This document shows positions 194 to 20,000 of a DNA stretch of 20,000 nt, piece by piece. The notes beneath the pieces are model-generated. The model did no database searches and was not told the origin of the DNA. It saw only the letters and a list, made by a program, of their open reading frames with translations. How positions within the stretch are numbered: position 1 is the first letter of the stretch; each line of letters begins with the position of its first letter. The stretch is from the IMG/VR virus record IMGVR_UViG_2061766007_000748; one strand, written 5' to 3'. Position numbers and translations under genes: made by a program. This stretch comes from an uncultured virus (IMG/VR IMGVR_UViG_2061766007_000748). Its lineage: Duplodnaviria > Heunggongvirae > Uroviricota > Caudoviricetes.

Positions 194-1108
194 TTATTGA
201 ATATTTAATTCTTTTTTTATCATATCAACCTCTTCATAAGTTAATTCTCCCGGATCATTCTTTCCAAATGGTTCACAGATGTTTACTACTTCTACTTCCA
301 TTCCGGTTGAGGATAAATTCATTCCAAGATGTTTAGCTTTCTCCTGAGCCTCATATTCATTATCAAAACAGATAAATATCTTTTTGTATCTTTCTTTTAA
401 GAATAATTCTTGTTCGTGGGTTACGGTAGTACCAAGTGAACAGATACAGTTATTTCCAACGCGAATGACATCAAATGCACCCTCAACCAACATAACGTAA
501 TCTTGTGTACTGTTATCAAGATTAAAAAAAATATCTTTTGCTGCAATTACAGACTGTTCAATAGACAAGTTTTTGTATCGTGGAATATTAAGTCTTTTAA
601 TCTCTTCTTTACTTAAAATAGAACGACCAGTCCAACTTACCAAAACCTTTTTGTAATAAATTGGAATAAGGATTCTGTAAGACCAATCACCGGCAATTCC
701 ACCACCTCTGATATGAAACTTATCTTGAAGATAATTTACATCATAACCTCTATTTATTAAATACTGTTTTTCCTGTTCATTTAAGTGATAACCGGGTAAA
801 TCAAGATATTGAGCTTTTGCTGTTCTTTTTGTTTCTTTTTCAGGTGCAATATATTTATAGTCTTGTATAAATTTAGAAACTTGATTAAACGGAATATTTA
901 AGATTTTCTCAAGTGCGTCATACCAGCTGTGACCACCACATCTCCAACAACTGNNNNNNNNNNNNNNNNNNNNNNNNNNNNNNNNATTAAAATGAGTATC
1001 TGGTGGGTCAGAACAGAACGGACAATTTACATTAACCCAAAATTTATTTACATCTGTTCTAACAGGAATATGAGCATTATCAAATATGCGTTTGAAATCA
1101 ATTGCCAT
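194..1108 (-). CDS. dnaG: Phage DNA primase (Cys4 zinc finger plus TOPRIM domain), DnaG-like
   Basis: N-terminal WVNVNCPFC...SCWRCGG zinc finger, RILIPI...SWTGRSI and PRYKN primase motifs, TOPRIM motifs LVEGAFDV, CFDNE and NDPGEL. Start placed at MAIDFKRIF (1108). The track's extension to 1210 crosses an N-gap and probably belongs to the upstream gene. Confidence 0.92.
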   Translation of the reverse strand: MAIDFKRIFDNAHIPVRTDVNKFWVNVNCPFCSDPPDTHFNXXXXXXXXXXXSCWRCGGHSWYDALEKILNIPFNQVSKFIQDYKYIAPEKETKRTAKAQYLDLPGYHLNEQEKQYLINRGYDVNYLQDKFHIRGGGIAGDWSYRILIPIYYKKVLVSWTGRSILSKEEIKRLNIPRYKNLSIEQSVIAAKDIFFNLDNSTQDYVMLVEGAFDVIRVGNNCICSLGTTVTHEQELFLKERYKKIFICFDNEYEAQEKAKHLGMNLSSTGMEVEVVNICEPFGKNDPGELTYEEVDMIKKELNIQ

Positions 1109-1165
1109 ATTTACANNNNNNNNNNNNNNNNNNNNNNNNNNNNNNNNNNNNNNNNNNNNNNNNNN

Positions 1166-1286
1166 AAGTTCTTCATCAAAATATGCTCTTACAATAGCTT
1201 CAAGTATCATTTTATCAGCTATATTGTCTTCAATATCTTTATAACAAGAATCTACACCATAATGACCACCTGAAATAAAACCAATT
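1166..1286 (-). CDS. Visible middle of a small hypothetical protein; start and stop hidden in the flanking N-gaps
   Basis: Open frame IGFISGGHYGVDSCYKDIEDNIADKMILEAIVRAYFDEEL between gaps 1287-1323 and 1116-1165. Confidence 0.55.
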
Positions 1287-1309
1287 NNNNNNNNNNNNNN
1301 NNNNNNNNN

Positions 1310-1653
1310 NNNNNNNNNNNNNNTTCCTCATGATTTAATTCATAAATAATAATCGGAACAATATCCTGGTTTTCGTAAGGCATGGCTCTGATTGTATTGT
1401 AATCAAGCCATTCAAAAGCGTCATTGTAAAAGTCAGGCTCACATCCAGGACTATCACAATCGTTATGTTCTTTATCGTTCCATTCTTTTTCGTAATCTTC
1501 TGCAAGTGCCGCAGCAAGTGTATAATAACCATAAATAATATGTTTTTTATCTTCACTTACTCCAAGAATACCTTTATTGAAAACTTCTTCTGGTTCTAAA
1601 AACAATACTGGTTCTTCAATTCCAAACCGTTCACAGATTTCCTGTTTTGTCAT
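1310..1653 (-). CDS. Conserved phage hypothetical protein (about 110 aa); stop probably in N-gap 1287-1323, so the left coordinate is approximate
   Basis: GGAGG RBS and ATGA overlap with the upstream stop. Pattern LFLEP..FNKGILGV...IIY...AFEWLDYNTIRAMPY....PIII resembles a widespread small phage protein family (from recall, not searched). Confidence 0.75.
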
Positions 1654-2123
1654 ATATTACCTCCTATAATTTTAAGAACTTTCTGTCTCTGTTCTTCTAT
1701 TTGTTCAGGTGTTGCAAGTTTACCACCTGGTATCATAACGTCAAGAAAATCACCAATATCAAATATTTCACCTTCTGATAAAACATTCAAAGCATAAGCA
1801 TTATTTAATGTAAAATTGATAATTTGATTAATATCCTTCTGATTTAATTCTGATTTAGTTTTATCATATGTATCTTCTACTAATTCACNNNNNNNNNNNN
1901 NNNNNNNNNNNNAAAATTGTTTTTGGACTGTATCTGCATGATTTATCTGAAACTTAATCCTTTTACCATGTCCACCTTTAAGATATTCTTTACCTTCATC
2001 TACCCATATATTTACAGGTAATCCACTTCTTTTCTTACGAATATTTGCCATAGAATAAATCCATGAACATTCTTCAGTAACATTATCTATTTCATTATCT
2101 ATTTCATTATCAATAAGTTCCAT
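1650..2123 (-). CDS. Hypothetical protein, possibly DUF4160-like
   Basis: Strong AAGGAGG RBS, 157 aa ORF. Core MANIRKKRSGLPVNIWVDE...HGKRIKFQ and a C-terminal helix LNQKDINQIINFTLNNAYAL loosely parallel the DUF4160 layout. The gene is solid and the family call is tentative. Confidence 0.7.
   Translation of the reverse strand: MELIDNEIDNEIDNVTEECSWIYSMANIRKKRSGLPVNIWVDEGKEYLKGGHGKRIKFQINHADTVQKQFXXXXXXXXXELVEDTYDKTKSELNQKDINQIINFTLNNAYALNVLSEGEIFDIGDFLDVMIPGGKLATPEQIEEQRQKVLKIIGGNI
2079..2114 (-). repeat. 12-bp in-frame tandem repeat, about 3 copies, encoding IDNE-IDNE-IDNV
   Basis: Minus strand reads ATTGATAATGAA ATAGATAATGAA ATAGATAATGTT. Confidence 0.9.
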
Positions 2124-2136
2124 AATCTAATTCCTC

Positions 2137-2283
2137 CTTAAAATAAAAACCCCTTTATGAAAGTGTCTGGTGGTTTGCCAAGATTGTCCAATGCGAATAA
2201 AACAATCATAAACACTTTCACAAAAGGGTTTTAATTATCTCTCGCATTGTCTATCTTATCCACAGTCACCAACTAAGGACAAT
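2137..2283 (-). ncRNA. Putative structured 5' leader / cis-regulatory RNA with a terminator-like 3' end
   Basis: 22-bp stem 2232-2211 with 2167-2146, fully paired only on the - strand (three G-U pairs). Inner 8-bp stem 2207-2200 with 2189-2182 (two G-U pairs). 5' hairpin 2283-2246. U-tract UUUUUAUUUU just before the RBS. Lies directly downstream of a sigma70 promoter. Confidence 0.7.
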
Positions 2284-2286
2284 TAG

Positions 2287-2315
2287 ATTATAATATAACC
2301 ACTTCTGTTTGTAAA
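2287..2315 (-). promoter_or_regulatory. Sigma70-type promoter
   Basis: TTTACA (2315-2310), 17-nt spacer, perfect TATAAT (2292-2287), intergenic. Predicted start site near 2280. Confidence 0.85.
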
Positions 2316-2322
2316 GTATAAT

Positions 2323-2754
2323 TTATTCTTCCTTCTCAGATAAAAACTTAAACAGTTCTTCAGCTTCCCATTTTACTTCACCGGGAAGTCCTTTACTTCT
2401 TTGAGTAAGTTCGTCACCATAGTGCATATAATCATCACCAATTTTAATGCTGTCACCATTATTCTTAACATAAGTAATACCACAGTGCGTTCTAAAAGGA
2501 AAGTTATTCATAGCACCGTCATAATCGTCGTCTGTAAGATGGCACAGGTTCTTATAAAGTGGATGGTTTTTATAAATTATGGCATAAACATTCCAACACT
2601 CATTACCCATAAACCCACATAATTCATTAGCCTTCTCTTCATCATCTATCATATGCCAATGAACGATTTCTACTTCAAAATTATTCCCTTTGTTTACACA
2701 ATTCTCAAGAAAAATATTCCTTGGGTTTTCTTTTAGTTTCATTTCAAAATTCAT
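2323..2754 (-). CDS. Conserved phage hypothetical protein, 143 aa
   Basis: AGGAGGTGA RBS, uninterrupted ORF. Motif string WNVY..HP...HCGITY...IGDDYMHYGD resembles the W.GY..HP..HGG.TY..GFD..H..D phage family (from recall). Confidence 0.8.
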   Translation of the reverse strand: MNFEMKLKENPRNIFLENCVNKGNNFEVEIVHWHMIDDEEKANELCGFMGNECWNVYAIIYKNHPLYKNLCHLTDDDYDGAMNNFPFRTHCGITYVKNNGDSIKIGDDYMHYGDELTQRSKGLPGEVKWEAEELFKFLSEKEE

Positions 2755-4138: not shown

Positions 4139-5147
4139 ATGTCCGTTTACAATTATGGCGACCAAAAGATAGGATGGNNNNNNNNNNNNNNNNNNNNNNN
4201 NNNNNNNNNNNNNNNNNNNNNGATTTAGTCAGCCAGGACTTGTTACAAGACCGGCTATGATTATAACTACAACTGAAACAGGTGCTAATGTAACGATACG
4301 CCCGTTTTCTCTTTTAATTCAACCTTCTGATATGAAAACAGATGTTACAGATGAAAACGGCAATAATATCATTGTCAGACTTGCTAAGGTAACAACAGAA
4401 AGTAATGTAACCGTTCCAATTGACGAAAATACCCGTGCTATTGGATTCAGGTATATGTTTAAGCAAGCCTCACAAGCGACAGGACAATCAGAATGGTATG
4501 GTGATTTCGTAGCCTTAGACACTGATACTATCAGAGGGTCTAATCCTTTTGAAGGTATCATTATTGCAACCTGTATGTGTAATATAAACAATGATACTTC
4601 CGATAAATATTTTTCTGTAACCACAAGTGGAGCTGATATAAGTGATTTACTTCTTAAAGAAGAAGGATGGAATCCTAATTGCTGGGTAAGTCTTGTTTCA
4701 CCAAGACGGGCAGCATTATCAAATGATAAGATAGCTTATACTAAATTAGAATTAAGAAACCATAACAGTTCATTTGCATCTTATATAAACAGTACATCAG
4801 GTGTTACTTATATATATGCTCCTACCTATACATTTATGAATAACGGAGATGTTACGGGTATTTATGAAAGTGGTGTTATATATCATACAGTAAGTGATAC
4901 TAAAACACCATTTATTCAGAATGGGATCTGTTTCAATAGTAATGGCTTAACCTGTACTGATTATGGTAACAGTATACCATTATCTAATACACAGGGTGGA
5001 ATATTAGCAATAGCAGAAAGTGTTCACAGTGGTTCAACCTGTACTGATACACTTGCAGAATCATTTGCTAACCGGATTAAATTGTATCCTTGTATCAAAG
5101 AACAATTAAACATATATGTATCAGATAATACATTATATATCAAATAA
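4139..5147 (+). CDS. Unknown virion structural protein, about 335 aa, beta-rich
   Basis: AAGGAG RBS and ATG at 4139 (MSVYNYGDQKIGW). After the gap, FSQPGLVTRPA runs into the 4257 ORF. Rich in T, S, N, G and located between terminator and sheath. Confidence 0.65.
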
Positions 5148-16742: not shown

Positions 16743-18485
16743 TTATTCATATTCAATTTGTACTGTTTCTTTATTTTTCATAAGACGTCTTGATTTTACT
16801 TTCGCTATCATACTTTCATTAATGTCTACAAAAGACGCACTAGTATCGCCATTCATTACGGCCTGTATATCTGTATAATGTTTAGTAAGAGTATCAAGTG
16901 GTGCTTCATCAACAGTATCTTTTACCAATAAATAATAAATAAGACATCTATCTGCTTCTTGTCCAATTCTATGAATACGATCACACGCCTGTTCCATCTG
17001 TGCACAGGTTTGGCCAAATTCTGTAAATATAACAGTATGCGAAGCGGTAAGTGTAATTCCTGTAGAAGCTGCTTGAACTTGTCCAACAAATAGTTTTATC
17101 TTAGATTCATTTTGAAACTTATTTACAGCTTCTTGTCTTTTGAAGTTAGCAACATTTCCGTTTATTCCGACAGCAATTCCTTCAAATGTTGTCATTATAG
17201 ATTCATACATCGCAGTATGATAAGTGAATACAACTAGTTTATCTTCAACCTCCATCATATCTTTAATAAACTGTATAACCGCTTCAAGTTTAATTTCCAT
17301 TAATGCTTCTTTCATTTTGGCAAGATATGTAAACTGATGTAGACCTTCTTCTTGTGCCAACAATTCTTCTTCCATCTTATCATATTCAAGACGAGATTTT
17401 TTATCCATATCAAAATAAATTGGAATCTTCTGTTTAGGTGGTAATTGTGAAAGTACATCTTCTTTCTTTCGTCGTATCATAAAACATGCAAGTTTTCGTC
17501 TTAATTCATCAAGATTTGAAACTCCTTTATACTGCCATCCGAATCCATTATAATATGGGTCACAATATCTTTGCTTAAAATCCCATTCTTTTGGAAACAA
17601 TTCAGGAGCAAGTAAATGACAAGTAGTATAAAATTGTGATACTCTTGTTTCGAAAGGAGTACCAGATAAGAACAGTTTAAGGATTCCTGGTTCACTTGCA
17701 ATTTGTGTAATCGCTCTTGTTCGTACTGCTTTACCAGATTCAATATACTGACATTCATCACATATAATAGCATGTGGTTTAATAACATCATTTATAATAT
17801 CAACCCAACCACTTACAGGAATAAATGCTTTACGATATTTCCAACCATTTTCTTTTGCTATCTTAATTCTTTCTTTTTCTTTCTTTTGTGCTTCTTTATC
17901 ATCAACACCAAGTATGTCATAATTTATAATTACAACATCTGCTTGTTTTGCTTTTTCTACAACATAAGATTCTTGATAACTGTTACGACCTTCAATAATA
18001 AAAGTTTTTACATCTGGTGTCCATTTATGAATTTCCATCTCCCAATTTAATTTAAGAGAAGCNNNNNNNNNNNNNNNNNNNNNNNNNNNNNNNNNTTTAG
18101 ATAAAGCGACAATAGAAATACAGCTCTTGCCACAACCCATTTCCTCAGCAAGTAAAGCATTATGTTCCCATTTTACAATCTGAGCAACATCTTCTTTTTG
18201 AAAAGGATACATTTCTTGTGGTAAATTAAGACTATCTATAAATTCATTTTTTAATTTATTTGATTTGTTTACTTTATTAAGAAGTTCTTCGAAAGTTGGG
18301 TCTAATACTGTTTGGGTAAGAGTTGATAAATCTTTAATACATTGAACACTTCTTGGAAAAGCATATCCATTTACTGCAGGCAAAGTTTCTGCATTATATT
18401 TTTCTGCAAAAGAAGTGAGTTGTTCAATATTTGCGGTGTTAGCAGTTGCTACAATTTTTTCACCGTCATAAAATATTCTTGCCAT
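16743..18485 (-). CDS. SNF2-family (SF2) helicase/ATPase, SMARCAL1/HARP-like, 580 aa
   Basis: YPFQ Q-motif, LAEEMGCGKS Walker A, ASLKLNW, INYD, ICDECQYI Walker B, LSGTP, RRKKEDVLSQLPPK, KLVVFT, ASTGITLTAS, QACDRIHRIGQ. Confidence 0.95.
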   Translation of the reverse strand: MARIFYDGEKIVATANTANIEQLTSFAEKYNAETLPAVNGYAFPRSVQCIKDLSTLTQTVLDPTFEELLNKVNKSNKLKNEFIDSLNLPQEMYPFQKEDVAQIVKWEHNALLAEEMGCGKSCISIVALSKXXXXXXXXXXXASLKLNWEMEIHKWTPDVKTFIIEGRNSYQESYVVEKAKQADVVIINYDILGVDDKEAQKKEKERIKIAKENGWKYRKAFIPVSGWVDIINDVIKPHAIICDECQYIESGKAVRTRAITQIASEPGILKLFLSGTPFETRVSQFYTTCHLLAPELFPKEWDFKQRYCDPYYNGFGWQYKGVSNLDELRRKLACFMIRRKKEDVLSQLPPKQKIPIYFDMDKKSRLEYDKMEEELLAQEEGLHQFTYLAKMKEALMEIKLEAVIQFIKDMMEVEDKLVVFTYHTAMYESIMTTFEGIAVGINGNVANFKRQEAVNKFQNESKIKLFVGQVQAASTGITLTASHTVIFTEFGQTCAQMEQACDRIHRIGQEADRCLIYYLLVKDTVDEAPLDTLTKHYTDIQAVMNGDTSASFVDINESMIAKVKSRRLMKNKETVQIEYE

Positions 18486-18495
18486 ACTGTAAATA

Positions 18496-18672
18496 CTAGA
18501 ATAGAGTTTCCATTTTTTCCTTCTTTTCTTTTGGTTTTATATCATTTATATCAATTGTGAGTTCTACAGTATCAACAGAAGTTTCTTTAATCACGGTGAT
18601 ATTTGGACCGTGAATCTCAGGATTGTCATAATCCTCATCAAAAATCGGAAATCCATATTTATCAACATTCAT
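18496..18672 (-). CDS. Small acidic hypothetical protein, 58 aa
   Basis: GGAG at 18685-18682 fits ATG 18672 (MNVDKYGFPIF). Overlaps the helicase stop and fills the space before the SNF2 gene. Confidence 0.65.
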   Translation of the reverse strand: MNVDKYGFPIFDEDYDNPEIHGPNITVIKETSVDTVELTIDINDIKPKEKKEKMETLF

Positions 18673-20000
18673 TATCATCATCTCCTGTATTTCTAATAAA
18701 GTCTCTTGTTGAANNNNNNNNNNNNNNNNNNNNNNNNNNNNNNNNNNNNCCTAAACATTGTGGGAATATACAAGCGTCTTCAACTTCACCGTTTCGTATT
18801 GCAATATTTCGTACTCTCATTAAATGCTCTTCTTTCATCTTTCTTGTTTGTTCAAGTGAAACCATTGAAGTAATATGAGCAATTTTCTTAAAGTTTTCAC
18901 CAATACTTTCAGCTTCTACAGAACTTGACGACATACCACCTCTATTTGTTTGTGACGCTGTAATTACTGCACAATGCATTTTAGTCGCGTATCCGCCAAG
19001 ATATTTCCATATTTCATCTATCTGGTTTCGTAACTCACTTCCACCACCTATTGGTGTTGTAATGTCTGCATAATCAATAATTANNNNNNNNNNNNNNNNN
19101 NNNNNNNNNNNNNNNNNNNNNNNNNNNNTTTGTTTTACTGACGCACTAAATCTCGGATAAGCAATTATTCTAATGTCACCAGTGTATGCATTATTAGTTC
19201 GTAATCTTTTCTGAAGAGACTGAACTGATTTTGCTTTATTCTTTACATTTACATCAACTAGTTCTGAACGATATTTTCCCTCTTCAGATGTATCTTCANN
19301 NNNNNNNNNNNNNNNACCGTCTTTTATTAAACCTGATTCACTTCCCCATAATGCCTTCCACATACGCTGAATGACTTCTTCACGAGTCATTTCCATACTG
19401 ACAAAAATAACATTTAATCTTTGTTTAAGAGCTTGAATTGCAAGGTACTGTAAAGCAAACGATTTTCCCCTCTTTGGTGGTGCAAGAATAGCGATAAAAT
19501 CATTCCTGTGAATATTACCAACTACTTTATTAAGTGCTTCGGGTAAGGTAAACAGTATTTCTTCTTCTTGTGTTAAAGCATTTTCAATAATTGTTTTATC
19601 TGATAATGAAAGTAAACTAACTTCATTTAATTCTACAGTATTTATCTTTTTATATTCCTGTTGAACTTTTCTTGCCTTATCCATTGAACGTGTTTCAAGA
19701 CAAGCATTCAATTCTTGTGTATAGATTTTTAGTGCTTTATAATCAATAAAGTCTTTTCCTTTATCAACAAGATAATCTTCATTATTAATTTGAATTTCAT
19801 TCTTGCCAAGTTCTTGAATATAATTAAGAATAAGTTCTTTTAATGCTTCGTCCTGTATTTCATCACATCTTGTACGATAAATAGATGTTATGTTATCTTT
19901 AGGTGCTTGTTTGAATTTTTTATAATAATCTAAAACCCAAGATATAACTGTTCGTGCATAATCTACATCAAAATAAATTAACTTAATATAAGGTATAAGA
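18662..20000 (-). CDS. dnaB: Replicative DNA helicase, DnaB / T4 gp41-like (SF4); starts beyond the window
   Basis: Walker A ILAPPKRGKS, VIFVSMEM, IIDYAD, ITASQTNR. The frame stays open from 19711 to 19999 (LIPYIKLIYFDVDYARTVISWVLDYYKKFKQAP...), resembling the gp41 N-terminal domain. Confidence 0.93.
   Translation of the reverse strand, partial: LIPYIKLIYFDVDYARTVISWVLDYYKKFKQAPKDNITSIYRTRCDEIQDEALKELILNYIQELGKNEIQINNEDYLVDKGKDFIDYKALKIYTQELNACLETRSMDKARKVQQEYKKINTVELNEVSLLSLSDKTIIENALTQEEEILFTLPEALNKVVGNIHRNDFIAILAPPKRGKSFALQYLAIQALKQRLNVIFVSMEMTREEVIQRMWKALWGSESGLIKDGXXXXXXEDTSEEGKYRSELVDVNVKNKAKSVQSLQKRLRTNNAYTGDIRIIAYPRFSASVKQXXXXXXXXXXXXXXXXIIDYADITTPIGGGSELRNQIDEIWKYLGGYATKMHCAVITASQTNRGGMSSSSVEAESIGENFKKIAHITSMVSLEQTRKMKEEHLMRVRNIAIRNGEVEDACIFPQCLXXXXXXXXXXXXXSTRDFIRNTGDDDNEC

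Follow-up and report, generated by a model that had tools for sequence, protein, structure and literature searches.

Our study revealed a structured leader RNA on the minus strand of a stretch of DNA from an uncultured virus of the class Caudoviricetes (IMG/VR record IMGVR_UViG_2061766007_000748); the whole stretch of 20 000 nucleotides (nt) that was analysed is referred to here as the window. The element occupies positions 2137–2315. Comparison with its relatives showed, to the extent that sequences and predicted folds can do so, a conserved, strand-specific and doubly pseudoknotted RNA between a promoter and the first replication or antirepressor gene, C4-like in its plan and terminator-like at its 3′ end. 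We think it somewhat probable (about 0.55) that it represents an unnamed phage RNA family that is built like the c4 RNA of phage P1 together with its a1 and b1 sites and that would act as a terminating regulatory leader. The parts of the leader in the window are as follows; stem lengths are in base pairs (bp).

2315..2287, minus strand: sigma-70-type promoter, with −35 box TTTACA (2315-2310), 17-nt spacer and −10 box TATAAT (2292-2287)
2256..2282, minus strand: 5′ hairpin, stem 2282-2277 with 2261-2256 and 15-nt loop 2276-2262
2271-2267, minus strand: a1-like strand UGGUG, inside the loop of the 5′ hairpin
2242..2249, minus strand: b1-like linker strand CAAUGCGA, whose partner is the loop of inner hairpin H1
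2146..2232, minus strand: closing stem P1 and the parts it encloses, 2232-2211 with 2167-2146, 22 bp including three G-U pairs (inverted repeat I7)
2182..2207, minus strand: inner hairpin H1, 8-bp stem 2207-2200 with 2189-2182 including two G-U pairs, and 10-nt loop 2199-2190 UAUUCGCAUU
2196-2189, minus strand: b′-like strand UCGCAUUG, the 3′ part of the H1 loop
2168..2181, minus strand: H2/junction region UUGGCAAACCACCA, 14 nt, including the a′-like strand CACCA (2172-2168)
2140..2149, minus strand: U-tract UUUUUAUUUU, which immediately follows the G+C-rich stem base of P1
2139-2133, minus strand: Shine–Dalgarno (SD) sequence AAGGAGG, followed by the ATG (2123-2121) of gene B

A preliminary description of this DNA, made from its letters, had pointed to a structured RNA close to this promoter, with the 22-bp and 8-bp stems, their G-U pairs and a U-tract running into the ribosome-binding site. 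All of these parts were present, and the layout recurs in relatives.

Covariation of the two long-range pairings

The two pairings, a1 with a′ and b1 with b′, were assessed in 65 distinct sequences of one subgroup of relatives, which were aligned with MAFFT and in which pairs were counted on a structure containing both pseudoknots. We call this subgroup ‘freshwater’, a label guessed from an adjacent RF02932 motif and not taken from habitat records. Paired cells made up 94.4 % of the alignment, compared with 83.1 % in shuffles, none of the 500 reaching the observed value, and 36–58 % with slid partners; the sequences are kin, and the shuffle counts are not probabilities. The individual helices gave the following counts.

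5′-hairpin loop with 3′ bulge (a1:a′): changes on both sides in 6 of 7 pairs, 96.5 % paired
Linker with H1 loop (b1:b′): changes on both sides in 7 of 7 pairs, 74 % paired, with the linker poorly aligned
Helix H1: changes on both sides in 9 of 13 pairs, 96.7 % paired
Closing stem P1: changes on both sides in 6 of 24 pairs, 98.1 % paired

One a1:a′ column pair was GC in 26 sequences, CG in 17, AU in 16 and UA in one. The controls with slid partners, together with the many types of pair in each column, make a strong case for covariation, and both of the loop pairings that had been proposed covary among homologues. The homologues of closing stem P1 in L016, L024 and others (loci are designated by our own numbers) also show compensatory changes. 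Several G-U pairs are invariant among the relatives, which fixes the strand and indicates a structure of RNA rather than of DNA. The three non-Watson–Crick positions of P1 in the window are all G-U on the minus strand, which had been read from the outset as a sign of structure at the RNA level, and this reading held.

This covariation of both long-range helices contradicts the simplest explanation of the element, namely an ordinary terminator of the upstream gene (gene A) that stands behind an ordinary promoter by chance. Such an explanation would account for the G+C-rich stem base and the U-tract, and AT-rich phage DNA does yield chance promoter-like sites, which as a class were not enriched in the window (100, against 92 ± 11 in shuffles). 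However, very different sequences keep the whole arrangement, with the 5′ hairpin, its spacing from the promoter and the two long-range helices, and relatives of gene A occur without the element, which is therefore not the terminator of gene A. We regard this explanation as extremely improbable.

Pairings within the window were tested against 5000 loop shuffles. Linker strand CAAUGCGA (2249–2242), which has no other exact copy in the window, pairs with UCGCAUUG (2196–2189) over 8 bp (p = 0.012), a pairing that was predicted at the outset and that relatives keep by compensatory changes. The other predicted pairing, UGGUG (2271–2267) with CACCA (2172–2168), comprises 5 bp and gave p = 0.27 in the window alone; as this is not significant, its support comes from the relatives, where it too is maintained by compensatory changes. 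In L016 the linker UUCGUCUA pairs with the loop UAGACGAG at the same place as in the window (p = 0.001), and UCACUA of the 5′ loop pairs with UAGUGA of the second loop (p = 0.005); crossed control combinations of strands were not significant in loop shuffles. L053 keeps the UGGUG/CACCA pair, with CACACCA in a hairpin loop, as read by eye.

Among 15 members of a second, more diverse group of relatives, a script found helices of 7–14 bp between the linker and the H1 loop in 10, or in 11 when the 8 bp of the window are included. Outer helices of 7–14 bp were found by script in L016, L127, L032, L040 and L108, and outer helices of 5–6 bp were read by eye in L024, L053, L117, L088, L078 and L110. 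A generic test for the two best helices, which is noisy, gave p < 0.05 in 8 of the 15 diverse members.

Sequence variability within the 65 sequences was unevenly distributed, with a mean pairwise identity of 0.84 in the stems, 0.57 in a1 plus a′, 0.44 in the H1 loop and 0.29 in the b1 columns. The 65 sequences hold 17 a′ strands and 32 H1 loops in 39 combinations. A conserved scaffold that carries variable but matched strands looks like the pattern of specificity determinants, and neutral drift of helices under no constraint but pairing could leave the same pattern.

The same distribution bears on two further explanations. One is a small-molecule riboswitch of the off type, with an aptamer formed from the three-way junction and the two pseudoknots; the preliminary description had named a riboswitch-like element. 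The complexity of the RNA is of aptamer grade (a double pseudoknot, a three-way junction and a closing stem tied to the terminator), but riboswitch pockets consist of conserved unpaired nucleotides, and in this RNA conservation is lowest in the loops, linker and junction (0.29–0.57 identity, against 0.84 in stems). In most members the second inner hairpin is a bare 7-nt bulge, and the downstream genes, which concern replication or antirepression, have no metabolic theme; a riboswitch is thus very unlikely. The other is a protein-dependent attenuator, in which a phage or host RNA-binding or antitermination protein would read the rod of P1 and H1 while the pseudoknots only shape the binding surface. 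The stem identity of 0.84, with many invariant stem columns, goes beyond what pairing needs, and the order of promoter, terminator and gene is classic for attenuators. Part of this stem conservation, though, is an effect of how the sequences were retrieved, the flanking genes vary among members and no candidate protein is conserved beside the element, so we consider such an attenuator unlikely.

Promoter, predicted fold and terminator

The promoter at 2315..2287 is the top promoter-like site in the window, with an 11/12 match, and transcription is predicted to start near G2280. The distance from promoter to 5′ hairpin is the same in L016 (TTTACA-17-AATAAT), L024 (TTGACA-17-TATTAT), L053 (TTGACA-17-TAAGAT) and the freshwater subgroup, which has a TATACT box. 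For 2285..2120 the minimum free energy is −47.4 kcal/mol (z = −4.15), a stability that none of 200 shuffles reached.

The homologous 5′ hairpins of L016, L053, L117 and the 65-sequence alignment also hold a pairing strand in the loop. A hairpin at this position had been predicted and is real, but its predicted register, GUC with GAC, uses C2249 twice and was not retained. We prefer UUGUCC (2282–2277) with GGAUAA (2261–2256) because it is the energy minimum, because the hairpin of L053 is nearly identical and because variant G2280A in a contig from sequencing run X6 converts a G-U to an A-U pair. The small hairpin UGG-CAAA-CCA that had been described within the closing stem is likewise only partly settled: the region is present, but its exact pairing is ambiguous between UGG/CCA and UUGG/CCAG.

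At its 3′ end the RNA has the parts of an intrinsic terminator, with a CCC/GGG(G) stem base followed by UUUUUAUUUU and a core fold of −35.7 kcal/mol. Stem P1 was unlisted in the terminator scan because that scan accepts loops of 3–8 bases only. A U-tract also follows P1 in L016 and L024. The predicted length of the leader RNA is about 135–140 nt. The SD sequence and ATG of gene B abut the U-tract and leave no space for another promoter, and the same abutment is seen before the gene B homologue of L016. Contigs from four sequencing runs of four studies carry the element nearly unchanged, with no differences in X4 and X5, none listed in X3 and three in X6, where the U run has one extra U; these contigs are too uniform and were therefore of no use for the covariation test.

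In three members (the window, L016 and L024) the partner of the linker is on the 3′ side of the H1 loop, 0–1 nt from the H1 stem and with 3–4 free nt on its 5′ side, a placement common to the relatives. In the freshwater subgroup the 13 bp of H1 and the 7–10 bp of the linker helix together come close to the 24 bp of the closing stem, and the linker strand lies 0–3 nt from the stem base. The window has 8 bp in each of H1 and the linker helix, fewer than the 22 bp of P1, and its linker is 9 nt longer. These lengths point to a compact fold in which H1 and the linker helix would lie alongside P1 and all helices would coexist.

Folds of 5′ prefixes of the window and L016 gave an alternative nested fold, formed by the same two pairings, before the 3′ arm of P1 is made. 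An antiterminator conformer was nevertheless set aside as a separate claim, as the helix lengths of relatives also fit the coexistence of all helices. Folding order could, as a conjecture, matter for termination. On the minus strand, every base of AUUGUCC (2283–2277), from the 5′ side of the 5′ hairpin, can pair with GGACAAU (2188–2182), from the 3′ side of H1, and in the 5′-prefix folds a long alternative hairpin precedes synthesis of the terminator's 3′ arm; the AUUGUCC/GGACAAU hairpin could be a kinetic intermediate. The linker also contains the start of a nine-codon open reading frame (ORF; MREIIKTLL plus stop, 2246–2217, minus strand), which begins in the b1 strand, ends in the 5′ arm of P1 and is without a good SD sequence. 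Leader-peptide attenuation was considered and rejected, as this ORF from AUG 2246 has no counterpart in L016 when read by eye.

Relatives of the leader and their gene context

Rfam 15 gave no family at gathering score in the whole window, and between 2050 and 2400 at E ≤ 10 it gave only chance microRNA-like matches to the long hairpin. A literature search found no description of this RNA family; PMC10690425 reports >8,000 unnamed candidate RNAs from IMG/VR, and that catalogue may list it. The exact 22-mer of the stem had no match in IMG/VR. Gene A was directly followed by unrelated genes, without the element, in the three distinct loci fetched (L002 and L005 are one contig). Gene B led to 11 loci in IMG/VR, 10 of which (32–37 % identity) have ordinary intergenic regions and no such leader. 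The closest, L016 (46 % identity), has the same layout in different letters: its promoter is followed by a 5′ hairpin, a 22–23-bp stem enclosing two hairpins, a U-tract, an SD sequence and a start codon, with a fold z-score of −6.5. L016 is the sole member found independently, through its protein.

Two covariance models were used, both with rough E-values. The first, R1, was built from the window sequence alone. Among the gene B loci, L016 gave a full-length match (37.8 bits, E = 9e-6 in 112 kilobases (kb)), and neither the window nor the remaining loci of this set gave a further one; a search of five genome records with R1 missed even the known L016 copy. A DNA pattern of stem base and SD sequence yielded a third member, L024 (35.7 bits with R1), and further full-length R1 matches were L117 (48 bits), L053 (35.5 bits) and L111 (35.3 bits). 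A looser pattern without the SD sequence found at least 120 loci in IMG/VR and at least 120 in GTDB genomes. R1 searches, which left out L225–L264, gave the following counts among the matches listed.

Viral loci L025–L124: 54 of 100 at E ≤ 1 and 26 of 100 at E ≤ 0.01
Viral loci L125–L144: 12 of 20 at E ≤ 1 and 8 of 20 at E ≤ 0.01
Genome loci L145–L224: 7 of 80 at E ≤ 1 and 2 of 80 at E ≤ 0.01

At E ≤ 0.01 this amounts to 34 of 120 viral loci versus 2 of 80 genome loci among the matches listed. Genome loci that carry the pattern rarely match R1, and the pattern alone therefore makes no hit; the family is concentrated in phage contigs. The only genome-collection loci with E < 0.01 among the matches listed, L150 (28.3 bits) and L151 (30.7 bits), lie on GTDB contigs of metagenome-assembled genomes titled Flavobacteriales and Saprospiraceae, and may be prophage or misbinned phage copies in Bacteroidota.

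Removal of duplicates and weak folds left 59 representative cores, about 11 of them false. The members form two groups, one diverse (the window, L016, L024, L053, L117, L111, L088, L078, L127, L032, L110 and others) and the other the large, more uniform freshwater subgroup, in which a bare 7-nt 3′ bulge replaces the second inner hairpin. The second model, R2, was built from the 65 freshwater sequences with the window excluded, and found the window at 2141–2267 on the minus strand (31.1 bits, E = 5.3e-5 in 103 kb); its next match in the window was on the opposite strand at E = 0.3. The sequences in R2 had been collected by means of a pattern derived from the window and L016.

The window has a G+C content of 32.7 % and many masked N runs; its longest apparent inverted repeat (18063–18123 / 18685–18745) was discarded as an artefact of two such runs. 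Public runs containing this stretch are labelled bovine and sheep gut metagenomes, and no RNA run was listed among them. The genes of the window are as follows.

2323..2754, minus strand: gene A, 143 amino acids, no family assigned
1650..2123, minus strand: gene B, 157 amino acids, function unassigned, ATG at 2123-2121
1252..1653, minus strand: orf133, between gene B and the primase
194..1210, minus strand: Toprim DNA primase (PHROGs phrog_47 DNA primase, E = 9e-37; Pfam Toprim_2)
16743..19999, minus strand: SNF2-type helicase and DnaB-like helicase
Between the primase and the helicases, plus strand: baseplate and head-morphogenesis genes

The gap between genes A and B contains no ORF of ≥40 amino acids on either strand. 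In the window the leader RNA is followed by gene B, orf133 and then the primase, and L016 has a DnaB-like helicase and then an SNF2 helicase behind gene B. Gene B has 13 relatives in the protein collection, none of them with a name, only unnamed viral clusters in the ESM Atlas and no relatives in GTDB genomes. The GenBank phage collection gave neither a DNA match to 1650–2760 nor a protein match to gene B. Gene A has 40 relatives of 58–86 % identity with invariant His, Asp and other residues, and its neighbourhoods in other contigs are unrelated, resembling those of a mobile accessory gene.

Nine of the 18 first downstream proteins that were scanned gave a named product or domain, comprising five replication proteins, two antirepressors, one homing nuclease and one LPD29 domain. 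The other nine include two that match only PHROGs families of unknown function and seven that match nothing. The named first genes are as follows.

L053: Prim-Pol plus PriCT_1 primase
L099: VapE/DUF5906 primase-helicase
L111: replisome organizer
L041: replication initiation protein
L068: DnaD-like loader (weak match)
L024: ANT antirepressor
L110: Rha-type antirepressor
L127: GIY-YIG homing nuclease
L060: LPD29 domain

With the primase two genes downstream, the leader in the window stands where C4, CI and IsrK-type regulators do, at the head of a phage replication or antirepressor operon. In L053 the start codon lies 20 nt beyond the element and has an SD-like motif.

Five freshwater members (L052, L071, L104, L116 and L140) have a Betaproteobacteria-1 RNA (RF02932) within about 10 nt 3′ of the element, at 101–107 bits (in L052, for example, at 1066–1187 on the minus strand), and other members have a different conserved stretch in this position. 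The new element and the adjacent RF02932 RNA may form one unit. L016 also carries an IS605-type OrfB/TnpB-like gene at 507–1832, about 1 kb upstream of its element, and a 20-bp perfect inverted repeat at 4996–5046, in the 5′ part of the SNF2-helicase ORF, which gave a weak model match of 22.7 bits.

Likeness to C4-type RNAs and possible mode of action

The annotated record of phage P1 gives, in order, promoter P1c4, a1 (TTGACAG), b1 (GTTAGTGC), the 77-nt C4 RNA, a2 and b2, and the genes icd and ant. In the C4 RNA a 17-bp closing stem surrounds two hairpins, one with UUCG and one whose loop forms b′, and a 7-nt junction on the 3′ side that serves as a′; in the Rfam c4-a1b1 model (RF03163), a1 is in a hairpin loop. 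The new family follows this plan: behind the promoter, a1 is borne in a loop and is closely followed on its 3′ side by a single-stranded b1, and a long closing stem comes next, with b′ in a loop and a′ in a 3′ junction. These parts are represented by the P1 stem, H1 and 7-nt bulge of the freshwater subgroup and by the 22-bp P1 and the UCGCAUUG of the H1 loop in the window. In phage P1 and the new family alike, the upstream a1 and b1 are complementary to a′ and b′ in nested order, with a1:a′ outside and b1:b′ inside. An antirepressor gene follows in some members (L024 and L110), and in both systems the pairing strands are the variable part, the C4 systems of phages P1 and P7 being known to differ in theirs.

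The two designs also differ. Here a1 and b1 lie 0–9 nt before the closing stem, whereas b1 of phage P1 ends 66 nt before c4. The closing stem and U-tract of the new family form a predicted intrinsic terminator, which P1 c4 does not have, the ends of P1 c4 RNA arising by processing (RNase P). The extra UUCG hairpin of C4 is missing, and a search for a2/b2 targets near the ribosome-binding site that follows the leader gave none.

Plasmids of the pT181 and pIP501 type offer a further comparison. A countertranscript from the opposite strand is recognized there through loops, this decides whether a terminator forms before the ribosome-binding site of rep, and the loops set the specificity groups. 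Loop-mediated recognition between RNAs and a terminator just before a ribosome-binding site are shared with the new family, in which, by contrast, both partners are on the same strand and covary. No antisense promoter was seen in this stretch among the 60 of 100 promoter-like sites listed, and no dedicated search for one was made.

The immunity of phage P4 (seqA/seqB/seqC) uses a downstream target as well, seqC, and termination there needs blocked translation and Rho; in the new family the terminator is intrinsic and within the RNA itself, and no downstream target was found. By description only, P4 CI resembles the new RNA in being a small leader RNA of the operon that it controls, with complementary segments upstream in the same transcript, a constitutive promoter and premature termination before primase-helicase genes. 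This termination ahead of the replication genes is reported in PMC4825925. New-family members precede comparable genes, namely a Prim-Pol, a VapE-type primase-helicase, a Toprim primase and a replisome organizer. IsrK of Gifsy-1 is a unit of promoter, small RNA and intrinsic terminator, with some read-through into orf45-anrP, which includes an antirepressor; the longer read-through transcript is a target in trans of the short one (PMC4825925). The new element resembles it as a promoter–small RNA–terminator unit ahead of downstream genes, and differs in that IsrK acts on translation of a downstream ORF via sites in the read-through mRNA, none of which were seen here. Replication genes and antirepressor genes are the classes controlled by P4 CI and by P1/P7 C4 and IsrK, respectively (PMC4825925, in part).

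The preliminary description had likened the element to a C4/CI-type switch. The layout of phage P1 C4 with a1 and b1 bears this out point for point, as do the replication genes downstream, but Rfam models are silent and no downstream target was found. The Rfam models C4 (RF01695), c4-a1b1 (RF03163) and isrK (RF01394) score neither the window nor 31 member loci (16 searched at gathering score and 15 at E ≤ 1), although the same library on phage P1 gave 68.8 bits for C4, 51 bits for c4-a1b1 and 35 bits for isrK; the C4 and c4-a1b1 models form clan CL00128. R1 scored only 4.3 bits on P1 c4, and R2 found nothing in phage P1 at E ≤ 1. The likeness to C4 could thus be convergence, the alternative being distant common descent.

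Several further points weigh against a C4-like regulatory leader. Downstream a2 and b2 at the ribosome-binding site, the defining functional feature of C4, were looked for and not found. Duplex energies of the two loops with their own and with foreign 200 nt downstream were equal (−7.76 vs −7.74 and −6.70 vs −6.61). A further duplex-energy control across members was blurred by the pairing strands that they share. Of 48 members, 7 and 5 had exact 7-mer complements in the downstream sequence (up to 900 nt), by estimate about the chance level, and 27 and 24 had them within 90 nt upstream. The window contains no second CAATGCGA, and a second site as good as a1/b1 was present in only one of five whole phage records (G008). 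Most members were retrieved with a pattern for the base of stem P1, derived from the window and L016, so conservation of this base and part of the model scores are built in. The a1:a′ helix of the window has only 5 bp, and its H2 region is ambiguous. The element may act as no more than a fixed attenuator, and any control beyond this could run in either direction.

The second site in G008, the record of L028, reads ATGGAAT-N15-ACCCTAGTAG on the minus strand at plus-strand coordinates of about 19894–19927. It matches the a′ and b′ of its own record as well as a1/b1 do, and lies about 5 kb away on the strand opposite to the element, 40–70 nt inside an ORF with calcineurin-like phosphoesterase motifs. 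This site may be a trans target.

For the terminating regulatory leader that we favour, the parts suggest the following mode of action. The loop of the 5′ hairpin would present a1, the single-stranded b1 would come next, and the closing stem would enclose the b′ loop and the a′ of the 3′ junction, so that two long-range helices, a1:a′ and b1:b′, would be nested. Transcripts that start at the strong promoter or further upstream would either end at the U-tract as a small stable RNA or read through; most would presumably end there, and read-through would feed gene B and the primase. The SD sequence and start codon lie within a few bases of the U-tract in the window and L016, and downstream genes can therefore be reached only by read-through. 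A leader of the C4/CI/IsrK type would in this way gate entry to replication or antirepressor genes by termination, with the two variable pairings setting the fold, and probably the specificity, of the gate.

An extension of this mechanism, which we put forward tentatively, is a self-recognizing immunity switch with the hypervariable a1:a′ and b1:b′ as its address, in which RNA from a phage that is resident or arrived earlier would act on the nascent leader. RNA of the same address would pair with the 5′ hairpin loop and linker before the leader's own partners exist, and altered terminator formation would then shut or open the replication or antirepressor operon. The target would be the regulator's own leader and not a downstream site.

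The element could instead be a stand-alone small RNA gene, whose compact, nuclease-resistant 135-nt product would serve as a decoy, sponge or regulator of host or other phage transcripts, with read-through into gene B being incidental. Its own strong promoter and strong terminator would suit such a gene, as would the second a/b-type site inside another gene in G008 and the five loci in which the RF02932 motif, and not a gene, follows. This is harder to reconcile with the window and L016, in which the SD sequence and start codon are too close for a promoter and the gene depends on read-through, and with L053, where the start codon is also only 20 nt past the element. Four of the five whole records have no other target, and both loops of the mature RNA would already be occupied in cis. 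On balance we find a stand-alone small RNA doubtful.

In summary, RNA immunity of the C4/CI/IsrK type is known, to our knowledge, from a handful of enterobacterial phages, and the same design is now seen in a low-G+C rumen phage with strong Shine–Dalgarno sites and in dozens of IMG/VR phage contigs from other environments. Here the design is fused to an intrinsic terminator and stands directly before replication or antirepressor genes, in a strongly covarying RNA family outside the coverage of Rfam. The proposed role would also give a function to a1/b1 sites, which in the phage P1 record are annotated merely as ‘putative’ targets, and would provide a model for RNA-only gating of phage replication. 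The natural address variants on one scaffold are ready material for tests of specificity. If the self-recognizing immunity switch is real, it would mean an RNA-only, terminator-coupled system of immunity and incompatibility across phages of very different hosts.

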